A stretch of 64,000 bases of DNA from an uncultured Candidatus Saccharibacteria bacterium (GTDB taxonomy: Bacteria > Patescibacteriota > Minisyncoccia > Phycocordibacterales > UBA5272). Below the pieces are notes generated by a model. That model saw nothing but the letters and a program-made list of their open reading frames with translations. It had not been told where the DNA came from and did no database searches. Of this stretch, positions 2,658-15,182 are shown piece after piece (position 1 is the first letter of the stretch; every line of letters begins with the position of its first letter). Location: the NCBI GenBank assembly GCA_964420875.1, contig CAYQUK010000001.1, positions 9,946 to 73,945 of the forward strand, read 5' to 3'. The translations under genes and the position numbers were made by a program.

Positions 2658-3724
2658 TATTTTTGGTCTAGGCAGAGATTGCTATTTGCAGACAGGTCTT
2701 TGTTTGAGTCGCTTTTTGTATCGGTGTTTATTTTTACCATAGCTATTATAGCTATCATGAGAGCATTGTCAGTCGACATTTCTCTTTTAGGAAGGTAAAG
2801 ATCTATGTCGTCTCTCTTACAAATATTTGTTATGGCTTCGCGTATGTGATTGTTAGCAGATACTCCGCCGCCGACAATGAGAGATTTGCTGTTATATAAA
2901 AATGTCGCAGTCTCCAATTTCTTTATCAATACATCTGTTACCGCATTTTCAAACTCCATACAGAAAACTTCACGCAGTTCGTCAGTGATTTCATTCTTTT
3001 GTGTAGCATATAGCACTGCAGTTTTTAGTCCTGAAAATGAAAAGTCTAGATTTTTAGAGTTGATCATTGGACGCGGAAGGCGTAAATGTTCAGGCGTTAT
3101 AGCTCCACGCTTTCGAGCGGATTCAGCGAGTTTAGATATTTTTGGTCCGCCAGGATACTCGAGACCCATTGAACGAGCAGCCTTGTCGAACGCTTCACCA
3201 GCTGCGTCATCTAGAGTCTCTCCAATTTTTTGGTATTTGTTGGGTGTGGGCATAAACACTATCTCGGTATGCCCTCCTGAAATTAGTAGCGCGAGTGACG
3301 GGTATGCTGGTAATGTTAAGGTGTAGTGATTTTTCTTTTTCTCTTCGACAAGTGACGCATATATATGTCCCTCCATATGGTTGATGCCGTATAGAGGTAT
3401 ATTGTTTTCTAGTGATATCTTTTTAGCTTCCTCAACACCAACCCAGAGAGCTGGAGCTAACCCGGGACCAGAGGTCACAGCTATAGCATCTATTTTTTTA
3501 ATAGTGATTTTTGCTTTTTCTAAAGCTTTGGCTATTAATATTGGCAGATGTATAAGATGTTCTCTCTTCGCTAGGTTGGGGTACACACCGCCATACTCTT
3601 TGTGTATATCTATTTGGGATATTAGTAGGTTGGATAATAGAACAAACTCACTGCTCCCATATTTCCATTCTATTATGGCTACTCCTGTTTCGTCGCAGCT
3701 GGTCTCTATTGCCAAGATTCGCAT
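2657..3724 (-). CDS. tsaD: tRNA N6-adenosine threonylcarbamoyltransferase TsaD (Kae1/Gcp family)
   Basis: N-terminus MRILAIETSCDETGVAII, HxxH metal motif, and overall length (355 aa) typical of TsaD. Confidence 0.85.
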   Translation of the reverse strand: MRILAIETSCDETGVAIIEWKYGSSEFVLLSNLLISQIDIHKEYGGVYPNLAKREHLIHLPILIAKALEKAKITIKKIDAIAVTSGPGLAPALWVGVEEAKKISLENNIPLYGINHMEGHIYASLVEEKKKNHYTLTLPAYPSLALLISGGHTEIVFMPTPNKYQKIGETLDDAAGEAFDKAARSMGLEYPGGPKISKLAESARKRGAITPEHLRLPRPMINSKNLDFSFSGLKTAVLYATQKNEITDELREVFCMEFENAVTDVLIKKLETATFLYNSKSLIVGGGVSANNHIREAITNICKRDDIDLYLPKREMSTDNALMIAIIAMVKINTDTKSDSNKDLSANSNLCLDQK

Positions 3725-3797
3725 ATTGTGACAATTATATCATAAATATGCTGTATACTGGTAGATAAGTCGCGAGACTTACTTTTAAATAATAAAT

Positions 3798-4250
3798 ATG
3801 CAATTTTTAAAACAATATAATCACAGTGTGTTTTTGTTCCTAGTGCGTGTAGTAGCCGGAGTGGCATTTATAGCTCATGGTTATCCAAAAATCATGAACC
3901 CTGAAATGTTCTCAGGATTTTTTTCATCACTAGGACTTGGTGGTTCTAATATGGTGATGTTTGTCGGTTTGGTGGAGCTGATCGGCGGAGTACTTTTAAT
4001 CGCTGGTGTGTACACTATGTATGCTGGTGTATTGCTAAGTATCGTAATGCTCGTTGCTATTTTCAAAGTTCATTTTGCTAGTGGATACAGCATGATGAAC
4101 AATGGTTATGAGTACCAACTGTTATTACTCGCCGTGTCTCTTGGTATGGTTTTCTCTGGTCCAGGAAAATACTCTCTTTGGGGCGGAAAATGTGGTTGTC
4201 CAAATGGTATGTGTGATCACAAGGGTGGCTCAAAAACTTGTAATTGCTAG
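3798..4250 (+). CDS. DoxX-family membrane protein with Cys-rich C-terminal tail
   Basis: 150 aa, 4 TM helices in a DoxX-like arrangement. C-terminal GGKCGCPNGMCDHKGGSKTCNC. Confidence 0.6.
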   Translation: MQFLKQYNHSVFLFLVRVVAGVAFIAHGYPKIMNPEMFSGFFSSLGLGGSNMVMFVGLVELIGGVLLIAGVYTMYAGVLLSIVMLVAIFKVHFASGYSMMNNGYEYQLLLLAVSLGMVFSGPGKYSLWGGKCGCPNGMCDHKGGSKTCNC

Positions 4251-4272
4251 ATTGGTATAATAGTTAAACACA

Positions 4273-4303
4273 AAAAGCGGCCACGCAGTGGCCGCTTTTT
4301 GTG
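4273..4303 (+). terminator. Rho-independent terminator
   Basis: aaaaagcggccac-gca-gtggccgcttttt perfect hairpin plus U-tract. Confidence 0.8.
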
Positions 4304-4422
4304 TTATTGTATACATATGAATATCAAAAAAAGTGAGATCAAAACCAGAAAAATAAATAGTGAAATGAGAAAAAGTTTGGAGAAATTTAGTAGCAAGAAA
4401 AGTAAAAAAGTAGTCTGGTAAT

Positions 4423-4863
4423 ATGAAAATACTACTGCTCTCGGTCAGCAAAAAGAATATCTCTTTTAAAGACTCTATAGATGAGTACAGGCTGAGACTA
4501 TCTAAATTCGTAGAGATAGAGGAGGAGGCATTGTCACACTCTGATATCAAAACTGAGTCTGAAAATCTAATAAAAAGAATAAGACCTGACGACTATGTTG
4601 TTCTGATGGATGAACATGGCAGCAATTTAAAAAGTGAACAGTTCGCAGAGCTCCTAGATAATAGGATGCAAGATAGTCAAAAGAGGATAGTGTTTATAAT
4701 TGGTGGGGCATATGGTGTTACCGAATACCTCAAACATCGCGCCAACTACACATTAGCATTTGGGAGTATGGTCTGGCCCCATGCCTTGTGCAAGGTTATG
4801 CTTTATGAGCAGATATATCGCGCCTACATGATACTTTCCGGATCATCTTATCATCATGAGTAA
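4423..4863 (+). CDS. rlmH: 23S rRNA (pseudouridine1915-N3)-methyltransferase RlmH (SPOUT family)
   Basis: 146 aa, size and motifs (IVFIIGGAYGV...) match RlmH. Confidence 0.65.
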   Translation: MKILLLSVSKKNISFKDSIDEYRLRLSKFVEIEEEALSHSDIKTESENLIKRIRPDDYVVLMDEHGSNLKSEQFAELLDNRMQDSQKRIVFIIGGAYGVTEYLKHRANYTLAFGSMVWPHALCKVMLYEQIYRAYMILSGSSYHHE

Positions 4864-4887
4864 TATGTGATAATATGTACCTCACAA

Positions 4888-4960
4888 GGGCGGTTAGCTC
4901 AGTTGGTAGAGCGTCACATTGACGTTGTGAATGTCAGAGGTTCGACTCCTCTACCGCCCA
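4888..4960 (+). tRNA. tRNA-Val (anticodon GAC)
   Basis: Cloverleaf folded by hand: acceptor gggcggt/accgccc, D-arm gctc-agttggta-gagc, anticodon stem tcaca/tgtga with loop ttGACgt, T-arm agagg-ttcgact-cctct. CCA not encoded. Confidence 0.85.
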
Positions 4961-4962
4961 CA

Positions 4963-5388
4963 ATGAAAAAGTTACTTCTTTCTATAATTATTTTATTTTT
5001 GTCCATTGGGGCAATATATTATATAGGAGTACGCGGAACATATAGAAATGATTTGTCTATAAACGGTAAAGACTTTTGGGTACAAATAGTAGAGAGAGAT
5101 AGAGATAGACAAATAGGATTGTCAGGTAGATATGACATGTGTGACAAATGTGGAATGTTATTTATTTTTGATTCTATGAATGAGAGGAGTTTTTGGATGA
5201 AAGACATGCGTTTTGATATTGATATTCTATTTTTAGATGCGGATAAAAAGATAGTTAAAATGTATGAGAATGTTGATAAGGAAAAGTTCCCAGAGACATA
5301 CAATGCAAATGCAAAGTATGTTCTCGAGCTAGGTGGGGGTACTGCAAAAAAGAGTGGTATTGTAGTTGGGGATGTGATAGATTGGTAG
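4963..5388 (+). CDS. DUF192-family protein (COG1430)
   Basis: MKKLLLSIIILF N-terminal TM/signal, then DUF192-like core (FIFDSMNERSFWMKDMRFDIDILFLD...YVLELGGG). The start of the tabulated ORF 4867..5388 lies inside the tRNA, so the start was moved to ATG 4963. Confidence 0.55.
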   Translation: MKKLLLSIIILFLSIGAIYYIGVRGTYRNDLSINGKDFWVQIVERDRDRQIGLSGRYDMCDKCGMLFIFDSMNERSFWMKDMRFDIDILFLDADKKIVKMYENVDKEKFPETYNANAKYVLELGGGTAKKSGIVVGDVIDW

Positions 5389-7429: not shown

Positions 7430-9217
7430 GTGAATATTCGTAATTTCTCCATCATAGCCCATATAGATCACGGTAAATCCACCCTAGCGGACAGGATGCT
7501 CGAGCTGACTGCGACTGTGGAAAAAAGAAAAATGCAGGAGCAAGTCCTAGACAGTATGGAGCTGGAGCGTGAGCGTGGCATAACTATCAAGATGACACCA
7601 GTGCGTATGGACTATACAGCAAAAGACGGTAAAGATTATATTTTGAACTTGATTGACACCCCAGGACATATAGACTTTTCTTATGAGGTGTCACGCAGTC
7701 TCCGTGCGGTGGAGGGGGCCGTGCTGCTTGTTGATGCTACTCAGGGTGTTCAGGCGCAGACAATGACAGTTCTTGAGATGGCAAAGGAGGCAGGACTGAC
7801 TATTATCCCAGTTGTGAACAAAATAGACAGCCCGCTAGCAAAGGTGGATGACACAAAAGATGAGATAGTAAAAATACTTGGCTGTAAATATGAGGACATA
7901 TACGCAGTGAGTGGTAAGACTGGTGAGGGTGTGATGGATCTGTTCGAAGTGATATGCAAAACAGTCCCAGAGCCAAAAAAGATTGATGTAAATGCAAAAG
8001 GGTCTCGCGCTCTCATATTTGATTTTGAATATTCTAATCATCAAGGCGTGATACTTTATGTGCGTATGCTGGACGGCGCTGTGCAGCGTAATGATGAGTT
8101 CGTATTCCTCCAGTCAAAAGCAAAGTTCATAGTAAAAGAGGTGGGATTTTTCAAACCTCAAAAGGTTGAGAACGGTAAGGTGACTGAGGGTGAGATAGGG
8201 TACATTGTGACGGGCATCAAAGAGCCTGGTGTGGCGCGTGTGGGAGACACAGTGACACCATTTGCGCATCAGATGACGGCCTTCCCAGGATATGCCGAGC
8301 CTACACCACTAGTGTTCGCGAGTATCTATCCAGAGTTCCAAGAGTATTTTGATGACTTACGTACAGCTCTCGGTAAACTTCGCCTATCTGATTCATCGTT
8401 AACATATGAAGAGGAAACTAGTGGGGCATTGGGGCGTGGATTTAGAGCTGGGTTCCTCGGGATGCTTCATATGGAAATAGTGACCGAGAGACTGAGACGC
8501 GAGTTTGGATTGTCTCTTGTCATCACTTCGCCGTCTATTACTTATGAGGTAACTGATAAGAACAACAAAACAGAAATGGTGTACACACCTATACATTTCC
8601 CAGATCACGGAGATGTTGCTAGTGTGCGTGAGCCGTGGATATTGACCACAGTTATCACACCACACAGATATATCAGTAATGTGATGGAGATACTTCATAA
8701 ACATGAGGCGACAGTTATGGAAATGGAGGACTGGGGATTTGAACGTGTCAAAATGATACTCGAGATGCCACTGCGTGAGCTGATGCGTAATTTCTTTGAC
8801 GAGATGAAGTCTGTGACTAGTGGTTATGCGTCTGTAGCATATGAAGGCAATGAGCTGCGTCCAGCAAATGTAACACGCATGGATGTTTATGTTGCCGAGG
8901 ACAGGATAGCTGCATTTTCAAAAGTTATACCTGAATATCGCGCACAAGAAGAGGCCGAGGAGGTAGTAGAAAAGCTTGAGAAAATACTTCCAAAAGAAAT
9001 GTTTCGCGTAAAGATACAGTCGTATATAAAGGGTCGCATAGTAGCCAGTCGTTCCATAGCTCCAATGAAAAAAGATGTGACAGGTCATCTGTATGGTGGA
9101 GATATTACTAGAAAGATGAAGCTACGCGAAAAACAAAAAGAGGGCAAAAAGAGAATGATGTCAGAAGGAAAAGTCCATATCAGTCACGATACTTTCCTAA
9201 AGATGATGAAGAACTAG
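7430..9217 (+). CDS. lepA: Translation elongation factor 4 (LepA)
   Basis: N-terminus NFSIIAHIDHGKSTLADR, DTPGHIDF, NKID G-motifs. 595 aa. GTG start. Confidence 0.9.
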   Translation: MNIRNFSIIAHIDHGKSTLADRMLELTATVEKRKMQEQVLDSMELERERGITIKMTPVRMDYTAKDGKDYILNLIDTPGHIDFSYEVSRSLRAVEGAVLLVDATQGVQAQTMTVLEMAKEAGLTIIPVVNKIDSPLAKVDDTKDEIVKILGCKYEDIYAVSGKTGEGVMDLFEVICKTVPEPKKIDVNAKGSRALIFDFEYSNHQGVILYVRMLDGAVQRNDEFVFLQSKAKFIVKEVGFFKPQKVENGKVTEGEIGYIVTGIKEPGVARVGDTVTPFAHQMTAFPGYAEPTPLVFASIYPEFQEYFDDLRTALGKLRLSDSSLTYEEETSGALGRGFRAGFLGMLHMEIVTERLRREFGLSLVITSPSITYEVTDKNNKTEMVYTPIHFPDHGDVASVREPWILTTVITPHRYISNVMEILHKHEATVMEMEDWGFERVKMILEMPLRELMRNFFDEMKSVTSGYASVAYEGNELRPANVTRMDVYVAEDRIAAFSKVIPEYRAQEEAEEVVEKLEKILPKEMFRVKIQSYIKGRIVASRSIAPMKKDVTGHLYGGDITRKMKLREKQKEGKKRMMSEGKVHISHDTFLKMMKN

Positions 9218-9349
9218 TACTGCTTAGTACAAGAAAGTAATAAAATAAGAAGCCACAAGTCCTAGCATCATGATGACTGCTACAACTGAGAAGACCACTC
9301 TTACTATTTTTTGGTTTTGAGATGAGAAAAACATGTTGTACACTATATC

Positions 9350-9757
9350 ATGTTAATGTCTGTCTATCAACAAAGGAAAATTTGGAAAATAATAAAATAT
9401 TCAAAACTTACAGGTTTGATATTTCTAGGTATAGCCATATATTTTGCTATGGAGTCATTGCAATTCTTACAAAAATGGGGTCAGTTGGACGAGAGATTGA
9501 CTGACGCAAAGAGCGAGAGACAGAGGTATGCCGAAAAGCTAAGTAAAAGACAGGGGGAATATGATTTCTTGCAAACAGAGCGTGGGAAAGAGGAATATCT
9601 ACGCAACAACATGCCAGTAGCAAAAGCTGGAGAAAAGGTGGTGATACTTTATGATGCCACATCTAGTCCGGTGCAAGTATTGTCAACGGAAATGCCTTGG
9701 TATGTGACGCTTTTTTCAAATATAAAATACTTTTTTGCAACTTATACCAATATCTAG
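9350..9757 (+). CDS. Septum-formation initiator family protein (FtsB/DivIC-like)
   Basis: 135 aa with one N-terminal TM, a coiled-coil segment, and a conserved KEEYLRNNMPVAKAGEKVVIL tail typical of FtsB/DivIC. Confidence 0.55.
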   Translation: MLMSVYQQRKIWKIIKYSKLTGLIFLGIAIYFAMESLQFLQKWGQLDERLTDAKSERQRYAEKLSKRQGEYDFLQTERGKEEYLRNNMPVAKAGEKVVILYDATSSPVQVLSTEMPWYVTLFSNIKYFFATYTNI

Positions 9758-9771
9758 TAAACTGACGATAT

Positions 9772-10026
9772 ATGGATACAACAACACAACAAGTAGAGAT
9801 TTACAGCACGCCGACATGTCATTTTTGTCACATGGCAAAGGACTGGTTCACAGCTAACAATGTATCATTTGTAGATCATGATGTAGCTGCTGATATGGAG
9901 CGCAGAAAAGAGGTGGTAGAGATGACGGGTCAAATGGGTGTACCAGTTATTAAAATCGGTAATGACATCATTATTGGTTTCAATCAACCAAAACTTGAGG
10001 AGCTTTTGAATATCAAAAGCGCATAG
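9772..10026 (+). CDS. Glutaredoxin-like protein (NrdH/YruB-like thioredoxin fold)
   Basis: 84 aa. CHFC redox motif near the N-terminus, GVPVIKIG motif. Confidence 0.75.
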   Translation: MDTTTQQVEIYSTPTCHFCHMAKDWFTANNVSFVDHDVAADMERRKEVVEMTGQMGVPVIKIGNDIIIGFNQPKLEELLNIKSA

Positions 10027-10036
10027 TATAAAAAAG

Positions 10037-10080
10037 TTTAGCCCCTAGGTCGCTTTGCGACCTAGGGGCTTTTCTTATTT
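10037..10080. terminator. Bidirectional rho-independent terminator
   Basis: Perfect 13-bp stem gcccctaggtcgc/gcgacctaggggc, flanked by an A-run upstream and a T-run downstream, between convergent genes. Confidence 0.8.
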
Positions 10081-10521
10081 GTTCAGCACATATACGCCAG
10101 CTAGCACCAGTACAGTGCCGGAGATTTTTTCGAAAGTGAAGCTTTCCTTGAAAAACATCACAGCACCGATACTGATAATCAGAGGCATCATAGCGAGTAC
10201 GATTGGGATCATTCTCGACATTTCTGCTGACCCATTTTGCGCCTGCTCGATCAGTCGGTAGAACAGTACCAGTCCTATACCGTTAACGATGCCGGCAACG
10301 ATCATCAATAGTCCTTTGGGTTGGGAGATGGTTACGACTATCTCGTTAGCGTTGCCACCAACGAGTGCGTACCACATCAGCGTCGCAAACGCTGTGCCGC
10401 TACCAATCAGTAATGCCATGATAGGGTATGGCATTGGTGCTGCACGTGCGAGGAGTGCGGCTGAACCAAAGAATACAGCGCACATCATAGCTGTGAAAGT
10501 GTTAGACATTATGGTCTCCAA
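10075..10521 (-). CDS. Small DMT/EamA-like 4-TM membrane protein
   Basis: 148 aa, 4 hydrophobic helices with an EamA-half-like pattern. GC content is visibly higher than in neighbouring genes. Confidence 0.45.
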   Translation of the reverse strand: METIMSNTFTAMMCAVFFGSAALLARAAPMPYPIMALLIGSGTAFATLMWYALVGGNANEIVVTISQPKGLLMIVAGIVNGIGLVLFYRLIEQAQNGSAEMSRMIPIVLAMMPLIISIGAVMFFKESFTFEKISGTVLVLAGVYVLNK

Positions 10522-10681
10522 AGCTTAGGAACATTCCTGTTCAGAATCCTATCACAAAAGTAAAATCTTGACATCTATTGCAATATTTTATGTATTGATG
10601 TAATATTTGCATTAGATTGTTCATGTGCTCGTATAGACAAAAAGCAATCGCCAATCCATCGTCACTACTCAGGAGACATTC

Positions 10682-11167
10682 ATGAAGAAACGACACAGTT
10701 TGGCGGCATTCTTTGCTGCCGCACTCGCAAGTATCGGCCTCGCAGCGAGCGCTGCCCAGCCCGACAAGGTCGTCTCGACCCAGATCGACAATCCCGTTGC
10801 AGGTGCAGCTGAAAAACAGTTGCCAGCAATTTCCGTAACTGCTGCACAGGTCTGCGACAAAGAAGTGCCCGCGCAGTACAACGCCATGGACGGCGTGACG
10901 CTGCAAATGAGCTCGAATGTCGCCTCGGTTCAGTACGGCAAGTATCACGGTGCGGCACCCAATGGCACGCCGATAATGCGCACGTCATCGCCGACGGTAA
11001 CGTTCGACCCCCGAACGGCGAAGCCTGTTTATGTTTTGAGTTCCATTTCCAGCGCGTCTCAGGCCAACGTTCAGGCTGCCGTCGGCCGAGGTCATCACGA
11101 TGCCTCAGCCGCGAGCAAGTTCTCGTTCTCGAATCAACCGTTTGCCGGCATCGTCGTTACGACCTGA
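10682..11167 (+). CDS. Secreted hypothetical protein encoded in a GC-rich islet
   Basis: Signal peptide MKKRHSLAAFFAAALASIGLAASAA. AGGAG Shine-Dalgarno 8 nt upstream. Codon usage is strongly GC3-biased, unlike the rest of the window. The minus-strand overlapping ORFs are Arg-rich and look like frame artefacts. Confidence 0.55.
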   Translation: MKKRHSLAAFFAAALASIGLAASAAQPDKVVSTQIDNPVAGAAEKQLPAISVTAAQVCDKEVPAQYNAMDGVTLQMSSNVASVQYGKYHGAAPNGTPIMRTSSPTVTFDPRTAKPVYVLSSISSASQANVQAAVGRGHHDASAASKFSFSNQPFAGIVVTT

Positions 11168-11298
11168 CTTCTCCGCTTGGGCACCACGTAGCCTTGGCTA
11201 CGTGGCCAACAACCTATGCGCACTGGGAGATTAAAAATCTTTCAGTGCGCACAACAAACTCTTTTCAACTCAAAAGGTTGCGAGGCGTTTTTTTTATT

Positions 11299-11373
11299 TG
11301 GTGTCCTCGGCAGGAATTGAACCCACATCAATCCCTTAGGACGGGACTGTTCTATCCGTTGAACTACGAGGAC
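11299..11373 (-). tRNA. tRNA-Arg (anticodon CCU), CCA encoded
   Basis: Reverse complement folds as gtcctcg|ta|gttc-aacggata-gaac|a|gtccc-gtCCTaa-gggat|tgat|gtggg-ttcaatt-cctgc|cgaggac|a|cca. Confidence 0.7.
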
Positions 11374-11393
11374 AATGGTGTATACTATATCAC

Positions 11394-11678
11394 ATGAACA
11401 CACAGGAACAAATGGATGAGCTGATGCGCTTGACCAAGGAAAACAACAAGATGTTGCACTCGCTCAAAACTCATGCCAACGTAGGCATAGTTTTAAAATC
11501 ACTGTATTGGATAATTGTTCTCGGTTTTGTTTTCGGGGCGTATTATTATTTGCAGCCAATTATGGATCTGTTCACAGGGGACACACATGTTACTGACGAG
11601 GCGGTAAATAGATTTAGTCAGGTTGTGCCTATTATCACTAGATTCAAGGAGTTTTTCACCTCTTTAAATACCAATTAA
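11394..11678 (+). CDS. Hypothetical small membrane protein
   Basis: 94 aa, one central TM helix, host-like AT-rich composition. Confidence 0.4.
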   Translation: MNTQEQMDELMRLTKENNKMLHSLKTHANVGIVLKSLYWIIVLGFVFGAYYYLQPIMDLFTGDTHVTDEAVNRFSQVVPIITRFKEFFTSLNTN

Positions 11679-11699
11679 TTTGTGATAATATGGTGGGAT

Positions 11700-11775
11700 G
11701 CTTGGATAGCTCAGTTGGTAGAGCGCTTCCCTGAAGAGGAATAGGTCCCCAGTTCGAGCCTGGGTCCAAGCACCA
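11700..11775 (+). tRNA. tRNA-Phe (anticodon GAA), CCA encoded
   Basis: gcttgga|ta|gctc-agttggta-gagc|g|cttcc-ctGAAga-ggaat|aggtc|cccag-ttcgagc-ctggg|tccaagc|a|cca. Confidence 0.8.
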
Positions 11776-11782
11776 CAAAATA

Positions 11783-11812
11783 AAAACTATCGAGATTATC
11801 GATAGTTTTTAT
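11783..11812. terminator. Bidirectional terminator
   Basis: aaaactatcg-agattat-cgatagtttt with A/T runs on both sides, between tRNA-Phe (+) and hsp20 (-). Confidence 0.65.
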
Positions 11813-11821
11813 TTTATTTAT

Positions 11822-12355
11822 TTAAATGCTTTTTACTTTTATCTTTGCTTGTCTCGCTTTGTCTACTTTTGGCATTCTGATTATAAGTAGTCCATGCTTC
11901 TCGACTGCCTCAGCCTCCTCGATCTCAATCTCATGAGGGAGTAGTATGGTGCGAGAGAAATTGCCCCAATACAATTCACGATAGAAATAGTCATCATCAG
12001 CCACTTGTCCATTAGCCTCACGGCGACCTTTGATAGTTACCATGTCACGAGTGATAGACAGGTGTAGGTCTTCTGGTTTTACTCCTGCTACCATGGCTTC
12101 AATTATTATTTCTGTGCCTGTCTGATATACATCAACAGATAGCTCGCCGACCTCTTCTTCATACTCGTCCTCAACAGCAACATGAGCTGGTCTTTTTACA
12201 GCTTTTGTCTCAGGGGCACTACGACGAGTTTTCATTGGCATCTCGTCCTCATCATCCATCTCATCACTATTAATATCGATGATGTCCTCGTCATCATCTT
12301 CTACTGTTATAGACCCAGCGAGTCTTTCAAAAAAAGTTTTTTTGTCTTTGAGCAT
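11822..12355 (-). CDS. Hsp20/alpha-crystallin small heat-shock protein
   Basis: Alpha-crystallin domain (VDVYQTGTEIIIEAMVAGVKPEDL...GLLIIRMPK) with an acidic N-terminal extension. 177 aa. Confidence 0.8.
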   Translation of the reverse strand: MLKDKKTFFERLAGSITVEDDDEDIIDINSDEMDDEDEMPMKTRRSAPETKAVKRPAHVAVEDEYEEEVGELSVDVYQTGTEIIIEAMVAGVKPEDLHLSITRDMVTIKGRREANGQVADDDYFYRELYWGNFSRTILLPHEIEIEEAEAVEKHGLLIIRMPKVDKARQAKIKVKSI

Positions 12356-12530
12356 GTTGAAATAAAATTATTCTAATACTTGTAGTATATAGACAATATT
12401 TACTCGTTACTAGACAAAAACCAAATCTAACTGTGGATAGGGAATGTTCTGGTATTTTGTTTTTAAATATTTTAAATGCTAGTATTAAATAAGTACTGCA
12501 TCCGTGGTACGTCTACTCTGGGAGAAGTGT

Positions 12531-12968
12531 ATGAAAGTGATTCGTGTTTTGGGGCTCCTGCTTTTGGGGCTCATCTGTTCTTTTTTGCTGGTGCTGGCAC
12601 CAGATCTCGGTTCGGGGCTGAAAGCGTCCGGCACCAACGTTGCGTGGTTGAACATCTGTGCCCTAACTGGCATCGGTCTGGCTGCTTCGGTGCTGTTCGT
12701 TGAAGTCTTTCCGAAAGGTCACGTCAGTGGTTTGCATTTTCCGCAGTCGCTCTCGCTGGCTCTTATGGCAGCCTCGTTAGTCGTTGGATTGATCTCCTCC
12801 GTTTCTGTGCTCACGACTGACTACTCCGGGAACTCGGCAGCCGGTCAGATATTGGCTCGTTCATCGATACTGCTCTCCTTCGTCATGGCGACAGTAGCCA
12901 CACACCTTTCGGTCGCACTCTTCCGCTACGGCGAAAAGCTTCCTGTTCAAGACGGTGTAGCTGCTTAA
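12531..12968 (+). CDS. Hypothetical 4-TM membrane protein in a second GC-rich islet
   Basis: GC-rich codons. Start chosen at ATG 12531 (MKVIRVLG...) with a purine-rich GGGAGAAG Shine-Dalgarno-like sequence upstream. The tabulated ORF 12504..12968 is in the same frame with a longer N-terminus. Confidence 0.45.
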   Translation: MKVIRVLGLLLLGLICSFLLVLAPDLGSGLKASGTNVAWLNICALTGIGLAASVLFVEVFPKGHVSGLHFPQSLSLALMAASLVVGLISSVSVLTTDYSGNSAAGQILARSSILLSFVMATVATHLSVALFRYGEKLPVQDGVAA

Positions 12969-12991
12969 CGCGAAAGCTGACGCAGTCAAAA

Positions 12992-13020
12992 AAGGCGACC
13001 TTCGGGCCGCCTTTTTTCTT
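12992..13020. terminator. Bidirectional terminator (UUCG tetraloop)
   Basis: aaggcgacc-ttcg-ggccgcctt flanked by A6 and T6 runs. Serves the 12531 gene (+) and valS (-). Confidence 0.7.
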
Positions 13021-13028
13021 TTGATATT

Positions 13029-15182
13029 TTATTGGATAGGCCAAGGCTCGATAATTAGGTCCTTGTTTTGATTTTCAAAGTATTGCCACAGCTCCTCGGT
13101 GATGAATGGCATGAATGGATGCAGGGTGATAATGTTTTCACGCAATATTGTCATCAGTAATACCTTTGCAGAGTCAGCGTCCTCATTGTTTTGTATACGT
13201 AGTTTGTGTGTCTCAATTATCACATCACAAAAAGTCTTCCAAAAATAGTCATATATTTTCTCGCTGGCTATGTGAAGTTTGTATTCCTCTATATCAGTTG
13301 TTATCTCTTTTAACTTTTCTTGCCAAGCTTTATACAGGTTTGTGTCTATCTCGTTTAGAGGGGTATCATATTTTATGCCTTCACATTTTTCAAATACAAA
13401 TCTAGTAGCATTCCAGATTTTGTTAGCAAATTTTTTATAAGCTTCTACTTTTTTAGGGTCTAGGTTCATATCTACTCCTGGAGCATTATTAACAATTAGG
13501 CCCATACGTAAAGCATCGGTACCATATATGTCAGATATTTCTAGTGGAGATATTACGTTACCTTTACTTTTGCTCATTTTCATTCCTTTAGCGTCTCGTA
13601 CTAGCCCGTGTAGATATACATCTTTAAATGGAGATTTACCTGTTGTGTATATACCAAGCATTATCATACGCGCTACCCAGAAAAATAGTATGTCAGCACC
13701 TGTCTCCATTAACTGTGTAGGGTAATATTTTTCAAAATCACCATCACGTGTGTTTTGTAATGTTGCAAATGGCCATTGTCCAGACGAGAACCATGTATCA
13801 AATGTATCTGTGTCCTCGGCTAGATCTGAATTACATTTTTCGCATTTTGTTAATTTATTTTCAATGTCTACATATCCAGAGTCACAATTGGTACATATCT
13901 TTGCAGGTATTTTTATACCCCATACTATTTGTCTAGAGATGTTCCAATCTTGTATGTTTTCCATCCAATGGTTGAAAACTTTTTCATGTTGCTCCGTTAA
14001 TATATTCACTTCTCCATTTTTGGCAGCAGCCATAGCTTTTTCTGCTAGTGGCTTCATGCTTACAAACCATTGCGCCTTAATCTGCGGCTCTATTTCACGC
14101 TCACATTTATAACATACAGGCACTTCATGTGTGTACTTATCTTCAACTTTTACCAGTAATCCTTTTGCGTCCAGTTTTTCTACTATTTTTGAACGAGCAT
14201 CTTTTATGCTCATACCAGCGAACTCGCCAGCAATAGGTAATAGTTTGCCGCGCTCATCTATTATTTGTTCCCAATCTAAATTATGTCGTTTAGCTATTTC
14301 AAAGTCTATTGCTGAATGCCATGGTGTTATTGTCATAGCCCCAGATCCTTTTTCTGGGTCGCCAGCAATATCTTTTATCACTGTAGCTTCTATTTCACCA
14401 CTGATCCATTCGAGTTTTATTTTTTGACCATGAGTGAATTCTGCGTACCGTGCATCGTCAGGGTGTACTACGACGTATTTGTCTCCGAACTTCGTCTCTG
14501 GCCTTACTGTACCTATTGTAAATGGTCCGTATTTAAAATAGTAGAACGGATCTATTTTCGTTTTATACTCTGTCTCTAGATTAGACAGTGAAGTCTGATG
14601 CTTGCTACACCAGTTCACAATTCTCTTTCCACGATATAACAACTTGTCATCTTCTAATTTCTTAAAAGTTTTATACACTGTTTTTATTATGCCATCGTCC
14701 AGTGTGAATACCTCACGTGACCAGTCACAACTAGCACCGAGCTGGCGTATTTGCCCTTCCATGAACTGTTTGTTGAAAAGTGTAAAATCCATTATCTCTT
14801 TATATAGATCTGCGCGTTCCATATCAAATCTTGACCTACCTTCTTTTTCTAATTTCTTCTCGTATACAACTTGAGTTTCAAATCCTGCATGATCTGCTCC
14901 AGGCAACCAAAGTGCACGATAGCCATTCATTCTTTTATATCTTGTTAAGATGTCTTGGATTGTTACAAACAACGCATGTCCAGCATGTAGAGATCCATTA
15001 GCATTTGGTGGTGGCATTATTATTGTATATGTTTTTTCTTTGCCATTATCATCAAGCCTTATTTTATCTTGTGGTAATTTGTCCGGGTTAAAATATCCAG
15101 ATTCTTCCCATTTCTTATATATAGCAGGCTCGACACTCTTTGCGTCATAGGGCTTTTTCAAATTTTCTATATTTGTATTCAT
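13029..15182 (-). CDS. valS: Valyl-tRNA synthetase, compact form lacking the C-terminal coiled-coil
   Basis: PPPNANGSLHAGHAL (HIGH) and KMSKSKGN (KMSKS). CP1 editing-domain region present. 717 aa. Confidence 0.85.
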   Translation of the reverse strand: MNTNIENLKKPYDAKSVEPAIYKKWEESGYFNPDKLPQDKIRLDDNGKEKTYTIIMPPPNANGSLHAGHALFVTIQDILTRYKRMNGYRALWLPGADHAGFETQVVYEKKLEKEGRSRFDMERADLYKEIMDFTLFNKQFMEGQIRQLGASCDWSREVFTLDDGIIKTVYKTFKKLEDDKLLYRGKRIVNWCSKHQTSLSNLETEYKTKIDPFYYFKYGPFTIGTVRPETKFGDKYVVVHPDDARYAEFTHGQKIKLEWISGEIEATVIKDIAGDPEKGSGAMTITPWHSAIDFEIAKRHNLDWEQIIDERGKLLPIAGEFAGMSIKDARSKIVEKLDAKGLLVKVEDKYTHEVPVCYKCEREIEPQIKAQWFVSMKPLAEKAMAAAKNGEVNILTEQHEKVFNHWMENIQDWNISRQIVWGIKIPAKICTNCDSGYVDIENKLTKCEKCNSDLAEDTDTFDTWFSSGQWPFATLQNTRDGDFEKYYPTQLMETGADILFFWVARMIMLGIYTTGKSPFKDVYLHGLVRDAKGMKMSKSKGNVISPLEISDIYGTDALRMGLIVNNAPGVDMNLDPKKVEAYKKFANKIWNATRFVFEKCEGIKYDTPLNEIDTNLYKAWQEKLKEITTDIEEYKLHIASEKIYDYFWKTFCDVIIETHKLRIQNNEDADSAKVLLMTILRENIITLHPFMPFITEELWQYFENQNKDLIIEPWPIQ

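Follow-up and report, generated by a model that had tools for sequence, protein, structure and literature searches.

Two small GC-rich islets, which flank a block of conserved genes in an uncultured Candidatus Saccharibacteria bacterium, are probably ancient, clade-wide and variable envelope-gene islets at a tRNA hotspot, with a GC content at third codon positions (GC3) that is at equilibrium and with no recent transfer involved. The window analysed throughout is a stretch of 64,000 nucleotides (assembly GCA_964420875.1, contig CAYQUK010000001.1, positions 9,946 to 73,945). Islet 1, beside the 3' end of a tRNA-Arg(CCU) gene, holds two divergent genes, one for a half-size EamA-like membrane protein and one for a secreted orphan protein, P2, which share an AT-rich spacer; islet 2 is a cassette in valS that encodes a second orphan, the membrane protein P3 (Table 1).

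The first-pass annotation of this stretch, made from the sequence letters, had described a single GC-rich islet at about 10.05-11.25 kb with GC3-biased codons in the open reading frame (ORF) 10682..11167. The GC-rich patch itself is borne out by a sliding GC scan (500-bp windows, step 50), by GC3 outliers and by codon choice. While the overall GC of the window is 39.6%, 22 of the 25 GC-richest 500-bp windows fall within 10.05-11.0 kb or 12.4-12.7 kb, where GC peaks at 0.59 (at 10701) and 0.54, respectively; outside both patches, GC has a mean of 0.393 (standard deviation, sd, 0.034) and a maximum of 0.488. For 66 crude ORFs of the window, GC3 averages 0.357 (sd 0.079), and just three ORFs lie more than 2 sd above that average, the EamA-like ORF (10075-10521, minus strand; GC 0.48, GC3 0.54) with a moderate rise (z = 2.5), P2 (10682-11167, plus strand; GC 0.58, GC3 0.64), which at z = 5.4 confirms the reported codon bias, and P3 (12504-12968, plus strand; GC 0.54, GC3 0.59). 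The picture of a single islet holds in part only: islet 1 is GC-rich, but the spacer at 10522-10681 is AT-rich (GC 0.34) and the second islet at 12442-13040 had been overlooked. With a 172-bp AT-rich spacer (GC 0.34) between EamA and P2, islet 1 is not uniform and consists of two GC-rich genes on either side of an AT-rich control region. The amino-acid make-up of EamA, P2 and P3, if encoded with the normal codon choice of the window, would give a GC3 of 0.30, as compared with the observed 0.58; the effect is thus one of codon choice (preferred are TCG/TCC, ACG, CTG/CTC, CCC/CCG and ATC), beyond Ala and Gly richness alone. The tetranucleotide deviation of islet 1 (0.39) exceeds that of every 1.2-kb chunk of the window (maximum 0.37), which is weak evidence at so short a length.

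An abrupt change in GC might also arise when a high-GC fragment is joined to a low-GC contig during assembly or binning, and the abruptness of the change is all that speaks for such a chimera. Other samples have yielded five assemblies of one strain, three from JGI metagenomes and two from SRA runs, at least 99.9% identical, each of which covers part or all of the region and reproduces the junctions that it reaches. The arrangement recurs in relatives of about 91% DNA identity that come from unrelated projects and in diverged ones from at least four further projects, and both the AT-rich spacer and the terminators form a unit with the adjoining genes. The recurrence of the same joins in the five assemblies and in the diverged relatives rules out a chimera and leaves it with next to no probability. 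The suspected affiliation with the candidate phyla radiation (CPR) was confirmed, as every good LepA match among 185,579 species genomes is a Patescibacteria (CPR) metagenome-assembled genome, with an identity of 99% for the nearest, followed by 87-88%, 83% and 73-74%, and about 60% for the rest.

Among the relatives, the conserved order of the block is lepA, p135 (a conserved 135-aa protein), grx (a YruB-type glutaredoxin), tRNA-Arg, p94, tRNA-Phe, hsp20 and valS, the flanking lepA and valS being named from precomputed Pfam hits. In the relative L029 (LepA identity 73%), this housekeeping order is kept and both sites are empty, with 57 bp between grx and tRNA-Arg and 154 bp between hsp20 and valS. 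L026 (LepA 88%) has one 150-aa signal-peptide ORF (GC 0.61, GC3 0.74) between grx and tRNA-Arg, and neither EamA nor P3. L025 (LepA 87%) combines a related signal-peptide ORF with a low-GC short-chain dehydrogenase gene, and L021/L022 (P3 identity 88%, no lepA on the contig) has a 176-aa signal-peptide ORF (GC 0.56), no EamA, and a SET gene after tRNA-Phe. EamA and P2 are both present in L005 (about 91% DNA identity; EamA 88% and P2 60% identity) and in L016/L017, in the following S3 (EamA 90%), and EamA is missing from L022, L026 and L029. In L010, an EamA homologue (50% identity, GC 0.51) is accompanied by a low-GC (0.32) ORF of 125/136 aa and a divergent inverted tRNA-Arg(CCT) in place of P2. 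This replacement pair, at 385-831 in L010, occurs also in L011-L014; the 136-aa ORF in L012 has a LAGLIDADG-like look, which no Pfam hit backed.

The signal-peptide ORFs of the relatives have in common with P2 both the signal peptide and, upstream, the motif TTGCAA...GTAATATTAAT.GTGGA, on account of which we consider them one rapidly diverging P2 family. In all relatives down to about 87% LepA identity, homologues at the same locus are equally GC-rich. GC3 lies at 0.54-0.57 for EamA and at 0.63-0.74 for the P2 family, in which four lineages have 0.63-0.64 and a fifth has 0.74.

The persistence of this composition is also seen in the direction of synonymous change. In three-taxon sets with a synonymous divergence (dS) of about 0.3-0.8, 64 synonymous third-position changes in EamA, P2 and P3 were polarised by parsimony, with 31 from GC to AT and 33 from AT to GC. 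In the flanks, 96 changes from GC to AT versus 76 from AT to GC correspond to an equilibrium GC3 of about 0.39, and this flank process acting at a GC3 of 0.59 predicts 69% GC-to-AT changes (binomial p = 5e-4), or 73% if the equilibrium is set at 0.35 (p = 3e-5). Parsimony tends to over-count changes from common to rare states, by which the test would, if at all, err on the conservative side. At face value, the counts speak for a high GC3 that is being kept up, and not for a decaying donor signature.

These data bear on the idea, which the first-pass annotation had found plausible, that the genes recently came by lateral transfer from a high-GC donor, such as an actinobacterial or a proteobacterial host. 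The foreign-looking codon usage, the position beside a tRNA 3' end, the CPR nature of the genome and GC-rich mobile DNA near a tRNA in another CPR locus (the resolvase-like ORF of L063) would fit such an event. On the other hand, the same genes are found at the same site and with the same GC in relatives at a dS of about 0.5 and at 87-88% LepA identity, the synonymous changes carry no signal of decay toward the genome GC, no homologue outside the clade occurs in the protein or DNA collections searched, and the window has neither an integrase nor an attachment (att) repeat. Equally GC-rich homologues at the same locus, which that annotation itself had named as an argument against recent transfer, are largely what relatives down to about 87% LepA identity hold, and a recent acquisition appears very improbable.

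The donor searches were extensive. In searches of 5.8 billion sequences and of 1.84 billion representative proteins, P2 matched only clade members, to which its homologues are limited, and, weakly, repeats of giant Bacteroidota-type adhesins with Ig_7/CHU_C domains; EamA, with four homologues in all, and P3 yielded three to four matches each in the 5.8 billion sequences, all at this locus. Scans of metagenome contigs with P2 and EamA alignments, scans of viral contigs, and plasmid and phage searches by tblastn/blastn found nothing. Genomic islands and gene transfer reportedly occur often in Patescibacteria (PMC12455944), which makes an old lateral origin of the islets plausible, and we regard it as possible.

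The tempo of evolution differs between the islet genes and their surroundings. Between the window and L005, P2 has a dS of 0.50 and the flanking genes have one of 0.31-0.51; P2 has therefore been inherited together with its flanks since the split of these two lineages. For the same pair, the ratio of nonsynonymous to synonymous divergence (dN/dS) amounts to 0.55 for P2 and 0.20 for EamA versus 0.01-0.06 for the housekeeping genes, the range being 0.43-0.55 for P2 and, among the relatives, 0.14-0.24 for EamA. Between L005 and S3, dS is only 0.04-0.24 in the flanks, as compared with 0.41 in EamA and 0.68 in P2. From lepA to grx, L005 and S3 are nearest to each other (95-99% DNA identity), which corresponds to the tree ((L005,S3),window), whereas in p94 and the 3' region of P2 the window and S3 are nearest, which corresponds to ((window,S3),L005). 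The switch of trees and the excess of dS in the islet together indicate recombination breakpoints within the islet and alleles that are older than the flanks, a pattern typical of loci under diversifying selection.

Such breakpoints and old alleles would also fit native genes, with a GC3 raised locally by GC-biased gene conversion at a recombination hotspot or by selection on mRNA or codons, and with empty sites that are deletions. The apparently stationary GC3, the undetectable donor and the likewise raised GC3 of the native neighbour p94 (0.44-0.50) agree with this explanation. However, the 8-bp duplication and the leftover valS end at P3 described below indicate an insertion, and no deletion in the relatives; EamA is sporadic in the clade; and the other membrane proteins of the window (MurJ, DoxX and Wzy) have an ordinary GC3. 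Moreover, bacterial GC3 shifts ascribed to biased gene conversion are far below the +0.25-0.3 seen here. We consider native origin unlikely, though it is the rival with the strongest case. More doubtful still is the general proposition that tRNA-linked envelope genes of the clade, perhaps CPR-wide, are kept about 0.25-0.3 above the genome GC3 by a non-mutational force, the candidates being selection on the codons or mRNA of these genes and, at a recombination hotspot, strong GC-biased conversion.

The geometry of insertion is clearest for islet 2, where the P3 cassette cleanly interrupts the last codons of valS. In L026, the empty site has the sequence ...CTGTGGATAGGCCAAGG... with a single TGGATAGG, while the window reads ...CTGTGGATAGG / gaatg...(P3)...ttttat / TGGATAGGCCAAGG... 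(slashes mark the junctions). A leftover valS 3' end is still present at 12427-12441 (reverse complement CCT ATC CAC AGT TAG, encoding PIHS and the stop), and valS itself (13029-15182, minus strand) now ends in PIQ instead of the PIHS of the empty site. L026 and L029 have no such cassette; L021 has it with 88% identity and L020 with 52%. The cassette resembles transposon-type insertions in its perfect 8-bp direct repeat, which lies exactly where the empty site would place the junctions, but differs from them in that terminal inverted repeats and a transposase are absent from the cassette; the repeat could also be compatible with a microhomology-mediated insertion. P3 has no Pfam or NCBIfam match.

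Table 1. Features of the two islets and of the block between them (positions in the window).
Feature	Position	Strand	Remarks
Islet 1	about 10071-11298		from the grx terminator to the 3' end of tRNA-Arg(CCU)
Bidirectional terminator hairpin, left border of islet 1	10040..10070	.	14-bp stem, T-runs on both strands
Half-size EamA/DMT-like membrane protein	10075..10509	-	Pfam PF00892
AT-rich spacer, GC 0.34	10510..10681	.	motifs TTGACA...TTGCAA...GTAATATT
P2, orphan with Sec signal peptide, 161 aa	10682..11167	+	AGGAG ribosome-binding site, signal peptide
P2 3' region adjoining the tRNA 3' end	11168..11298	+	hairpins 11184-11205 and 11217-11251, T-run
tRNA-Arg(CCU) (gene anticodon CCT)	11299..11373	-	ARAGORN and Rfam; 3' end toward islet 1/P2
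Native block between the islets	11394..12355	.	same order in L029
p94, conserved 94-aa membrane protein	11394-11678	+
tRNA-Phe	11700-11775	+
Hsp20	11822-12355	-
Left copy of the 8-bp direct repeat TGGATAGG	12434..12441	.	from comparison with the empty site of L026
Islet 2, P3 cassette and right repeat copy	12442-13040		599-bp insertion flanked by the 8-bp duplication; cassette without the right repeat copy 12442..13032 (+)
P3, orphan with four transmembrane segments, 145 aa	12531-12968	+	GC 0.54, GC3 0.59; four hydrophobic segments
Bidirectional terminator in the P3 cassette	12988-13017
Right copy of the 8-bp direct repeat TGGATAGG	13033..13040	.	within the last codons of valS

With respect to islet 1, the first-pass annotation had placed its end about 70 bp from the 3' end of tRNA-Arg(CCU), which it considered an integration hotspot, and had found no integrase or direct repeat. 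The orientation of the tRNA gene and the distances agree with this description, as 131 bp separate the stop codon of P2 from the tRNA and about 50-70 bp lie between the tRNA and the ends of the GC-rich terminator hairpins, and our searches for recombinase domains (ORFs of 9350-12968) and for a tRNA repeat in the window were likewise empty. The hotspot becomes apparent in the relatives, with the empty site in L029, the varying cargo and the tRNA 3'-end repeat of L025. The latter is a perfect 19-nt copy of the tRNA-Arg 3' end, GTGTCCTCGGCAGGAATCG, located 135 nt outside the tRNA, of which L005 and L017 have decayed copies. Between copy and tRNA, these three share a conserved core, CGACCCCGTATTCGATTCCT (copy and core: L025 6463-6616; L005 10805-10975; L017, reverse strand, 1426-1596), which L026 also has (13323); window, L022 and L029 are without the copy and without the core. 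Compared with the window, L005 and L017 have 351 extra bp exactly at the tRNA-Arg 3' end, and no Rfam family was found in this segment of L005. From the tRNA 3'-end copies and the extra segment in the relatives we conclude that the tRNA-Arg 3' flank is an active integration/replacement site in the clade. The partial repeats enclose only about 111-125 nt beside the tRNA, and not the GC-rich genes. Recombinases were absent from the islets of the relatives as well (Pfam/NCBIfam).

Several further features of this flank are worth recording. The core CGACCCCGTATTCGATTCCT is partly an inverted copy of a segment of the tRNA T-arm. The tRNA-Arg gene of the window encodes the 3' CCA (...ACACCA, 11299-11302), and that of all relatives reads ...ACACAT or similar (L005 10948-10952), the difference starting just past the discriminator base, where the 351-bp indel has its breakpoint. 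Relatives also have, in their variable region, tiny GC-rich ORFs of 16-22 aa with the motif ...ILE.FG...RRP.GP..., followed by terminator-like hairpins (about 10664-10729 in L005, 357-407 in L022 and 5186-5254 in L025); none was seen in the window.

Cumulatively, the following history would account for old and variable islets. Both would have been inserted in ancestors of a roughly genus-level clade, before the present genome came into being, with a P2-family gene as the oldest GC-rich resident of the tRNA site. EamA would have joined it later, in a single sub-clade, at a place between the terminator of grx and the promoter of P2, and cargo beside the tRNA would have been gained, lost or replaced. 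P2 would have diverged fast while staying in frame, with alleles older than the flanks in at least one lineage pair, and the high GC3 would have come to equilibrium, held there by selection or by a biased process. Several points weigh against this history. A second copy of the tRNA-Arg 3' end is absent at up to 3 mismatches in 25 in the whole window and at up to 8 in 29 in 9001-13200; the ORFs of 9350-12968 have no recombinase domain (Pfam, NCBIfam); and the window has no att-like or terminal inverted repeats. Only one outgroup, L029, has an empty islet-1 site, and a loss in that lineage is possible for islet 1. The GC3 equilibrium test is weakened by its small counts (64 changes) and by high divergence.

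The coding nature of the islets has to be considered as well, as GC-rich islands beside tRNAs in an AT-rich genome fit the pattern of structured non-coding RNAs, in which case the ORFs would be accidental. In favour of this alternative, the segment 10660-11298 folds with z = -5.5 and the EamA mRNA with z = -3.6. The former value is due to the terminator and to hairpins in the signal-peptide region, though, as z is -1.7 for the coding region of mature P2 and +0.55 for P3. A search of Rfam 15 gave only tRNAs at the gathering score, and nothing credible at E <=1 in 9900-13100. The ORFs are open in every lineage, and a Pfam domain, a signal peptide and a regular transmembrane pattern are present. 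In unconstrained DNA alignments, all gaps among P2 orthologues are multiples of three, which identifies P2 as a real, fast-evolving coding gene, and these in-frame indels together with a dN/dS below 1 are decisive against the RNA alternative, which we regard as extremely improbable. As a side observation, the EamA mRNA (10075-10509, minus strand) is more stable than its shuffled versions, none of 100 being as stable.

As to the encoded proteins, both assignments of the first-pass annotation for islet 1, an EamA-like transporter and a secreted protein, found support. The EamA-like protein (144 aa from ATG, or 148 aa from a TTG at 10521) matches Pfam PF00892 with 32.1 bits (cutoff 28.2; E = 1.6e-7) over residues 9-147, and five long hydrophobic helices are predicted from the sequence and in an AlphaFold2 (AF2) model with a predicted local distance difference test score (pLDDT) of 62. 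In a Foldseek comparison of this model with the PDB, no match had an E-value below 0.4, with the SMR protein Gdx and a nucleotide-sugar transporter as non-significant hits only. It shares with canonical EamA transporters of the drug/metabolite transporter (DMT) superfamily one EamA domain above the Pfam threshold and a model with five hydrophobic helices; the canonical proteins, in contrast, have two domains and 10 transmembrane segments, whereas the window protein is single-domain with 144 aa. By its sequence, it is classed as a putative half-size member of the DMT superfamily and, by analogy, would have to dimerise.

The gene is convergent with grx (9772-10026), with the terminator hairpin of the left border between the two. 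On its other side, the spacer probably holds the promoters of EamA and P2, to judge from its motifs; the P2-proximal part is recognisably kept upstream of P2-family genes in L022, L025 and L026, all of which lack EamA.

P2 begins with MKKRHSLAAFFAAALASIGLAASA/AQ, in which a KKR n-region, hydrophobic residues 6-25 and an ASA/AQ cleavage motif (slash, cleavage site) make up the predicted Sec signal peptide, and this signal peptide is kept in five members of the P2 family. P2 has no match in Pfam or NCBIfam, and its AF2 model is unusable (pLDDT 35), a low-confidence prediction that is beta-rich around residues 70-122. Residues 70-122 (10889-11047) weakly resemble the Ig_7 repeats (CHU_C-associated, Ig-like) in giant adhesins; with an hhalign probability of 3.5% and 38% identity over 53 residues this is a lead and not a match. 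Taken together, the three proteins may be a half-size DMT exporter that acts as a dimer, accompanied by a secreted and a small membrane protein, with a role at the cell surface, maybe in host or phage interaction, a setting in which variation would be an advantage.

Beyond the islets, valS and tRNA-Phe show variability of their own. The identity of ValRS to the window protein (13029-15182) is only 56% in L026 (14565-16748) and 74% in the more distant L029, and the L021 protein (3244-5385) diverges sharply by eye, with the first 26 residues identical to those of the window. To judge from this, most of valS may have been replaced by recombination or transfer in the lineages of L026 and L021. The assemblies at the end of L005, the start of L010 and the end of L025 all break inside tRNA-Phe, and an extra low-GC SET-domain gene lies just after tRNA-Phe in L021 (1584-1979), which suggests a second variable site downstream of tRNA-Phe.

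At 80 other CPR lepA loci, 29 GC3-outlier ORFs were recorded, several of the larger ones with signal peptides; an enrichment of signal peptides in these outliers was not significant (8/29 versus 206/1131, p = 0.22). Among the outliers are L032 13256-13987, L047 11623-12390, L071 15609-16268, L064 15886-16752, L065 15310-16299, L078 18906-20060 and L063 14385-15896. One outlier family is common to L032, L047 and L071, and L063 contains a 503-aa resolvase-like ORF (GC 0.59; serine-recombinase-like by inspection), the end of which runs into tRNA-like sequence.

Integrase-mediated islands at tRNA 3' ends and the genomic islands reported in Patescibacteria (PMC12455944) are similar to the present islets in their atypical composition, their position at a tRNA 3' end, their sporadic occurrence among relatives, an outgroup with an empty site and, in relatives of the window, a partial repeat of the tRNA 3' end. 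The islets differ in being very small (1.2 kb and 0.6 kb), in lacking an integrase and an att repeat in the window, in being old and clade-wide with a stationary composition, and in a cargo of orphan envelope proteins in place of recognisable mobile-element or metabolic genes. A second type of locus to be compared is provided by the flexible or hypervariable islands of marine and other free-living bacteria, in which cell-surface components are swapped by homologous recombination via conserved flanks. Conserved flanks, deeply divergent alleles of surface or secreted proteins, a change of tree and cargo swapped at a fixed site are common to these islands and the locus in the window. The latter, however, consists of two or three tiny genes without a glycosylation or O-antigen cluster, its GC shift is upward in an AT-rich genome, and a role in phage or host recognition is here conjectural. 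The locus is thus a small tRNA-linked flexible islet, the single unusual feature of which is an apparently stable high GC3.

These observations show that a sharp anomaly in GC and codon usage beside a tRNA by itself neither dates nor proves a transfer, as the anomaly persists here at equilibrium across a dS of at least 0.5. They also describe, for an uncultured CPR lineage, a compact envelope locus that recombines and evolves fast and is a candidate for the interface with hosts or phages, of which little is known in such bacteria. Should a stable high GC3 turn out to be general, the question would arise of what shapes base composition in streamlined genomes, and if GC3 were indeed held by a non-mutational force, a foreign-looking composition would be a stable trait of a hypervariable surface locus and no sign of transfer.

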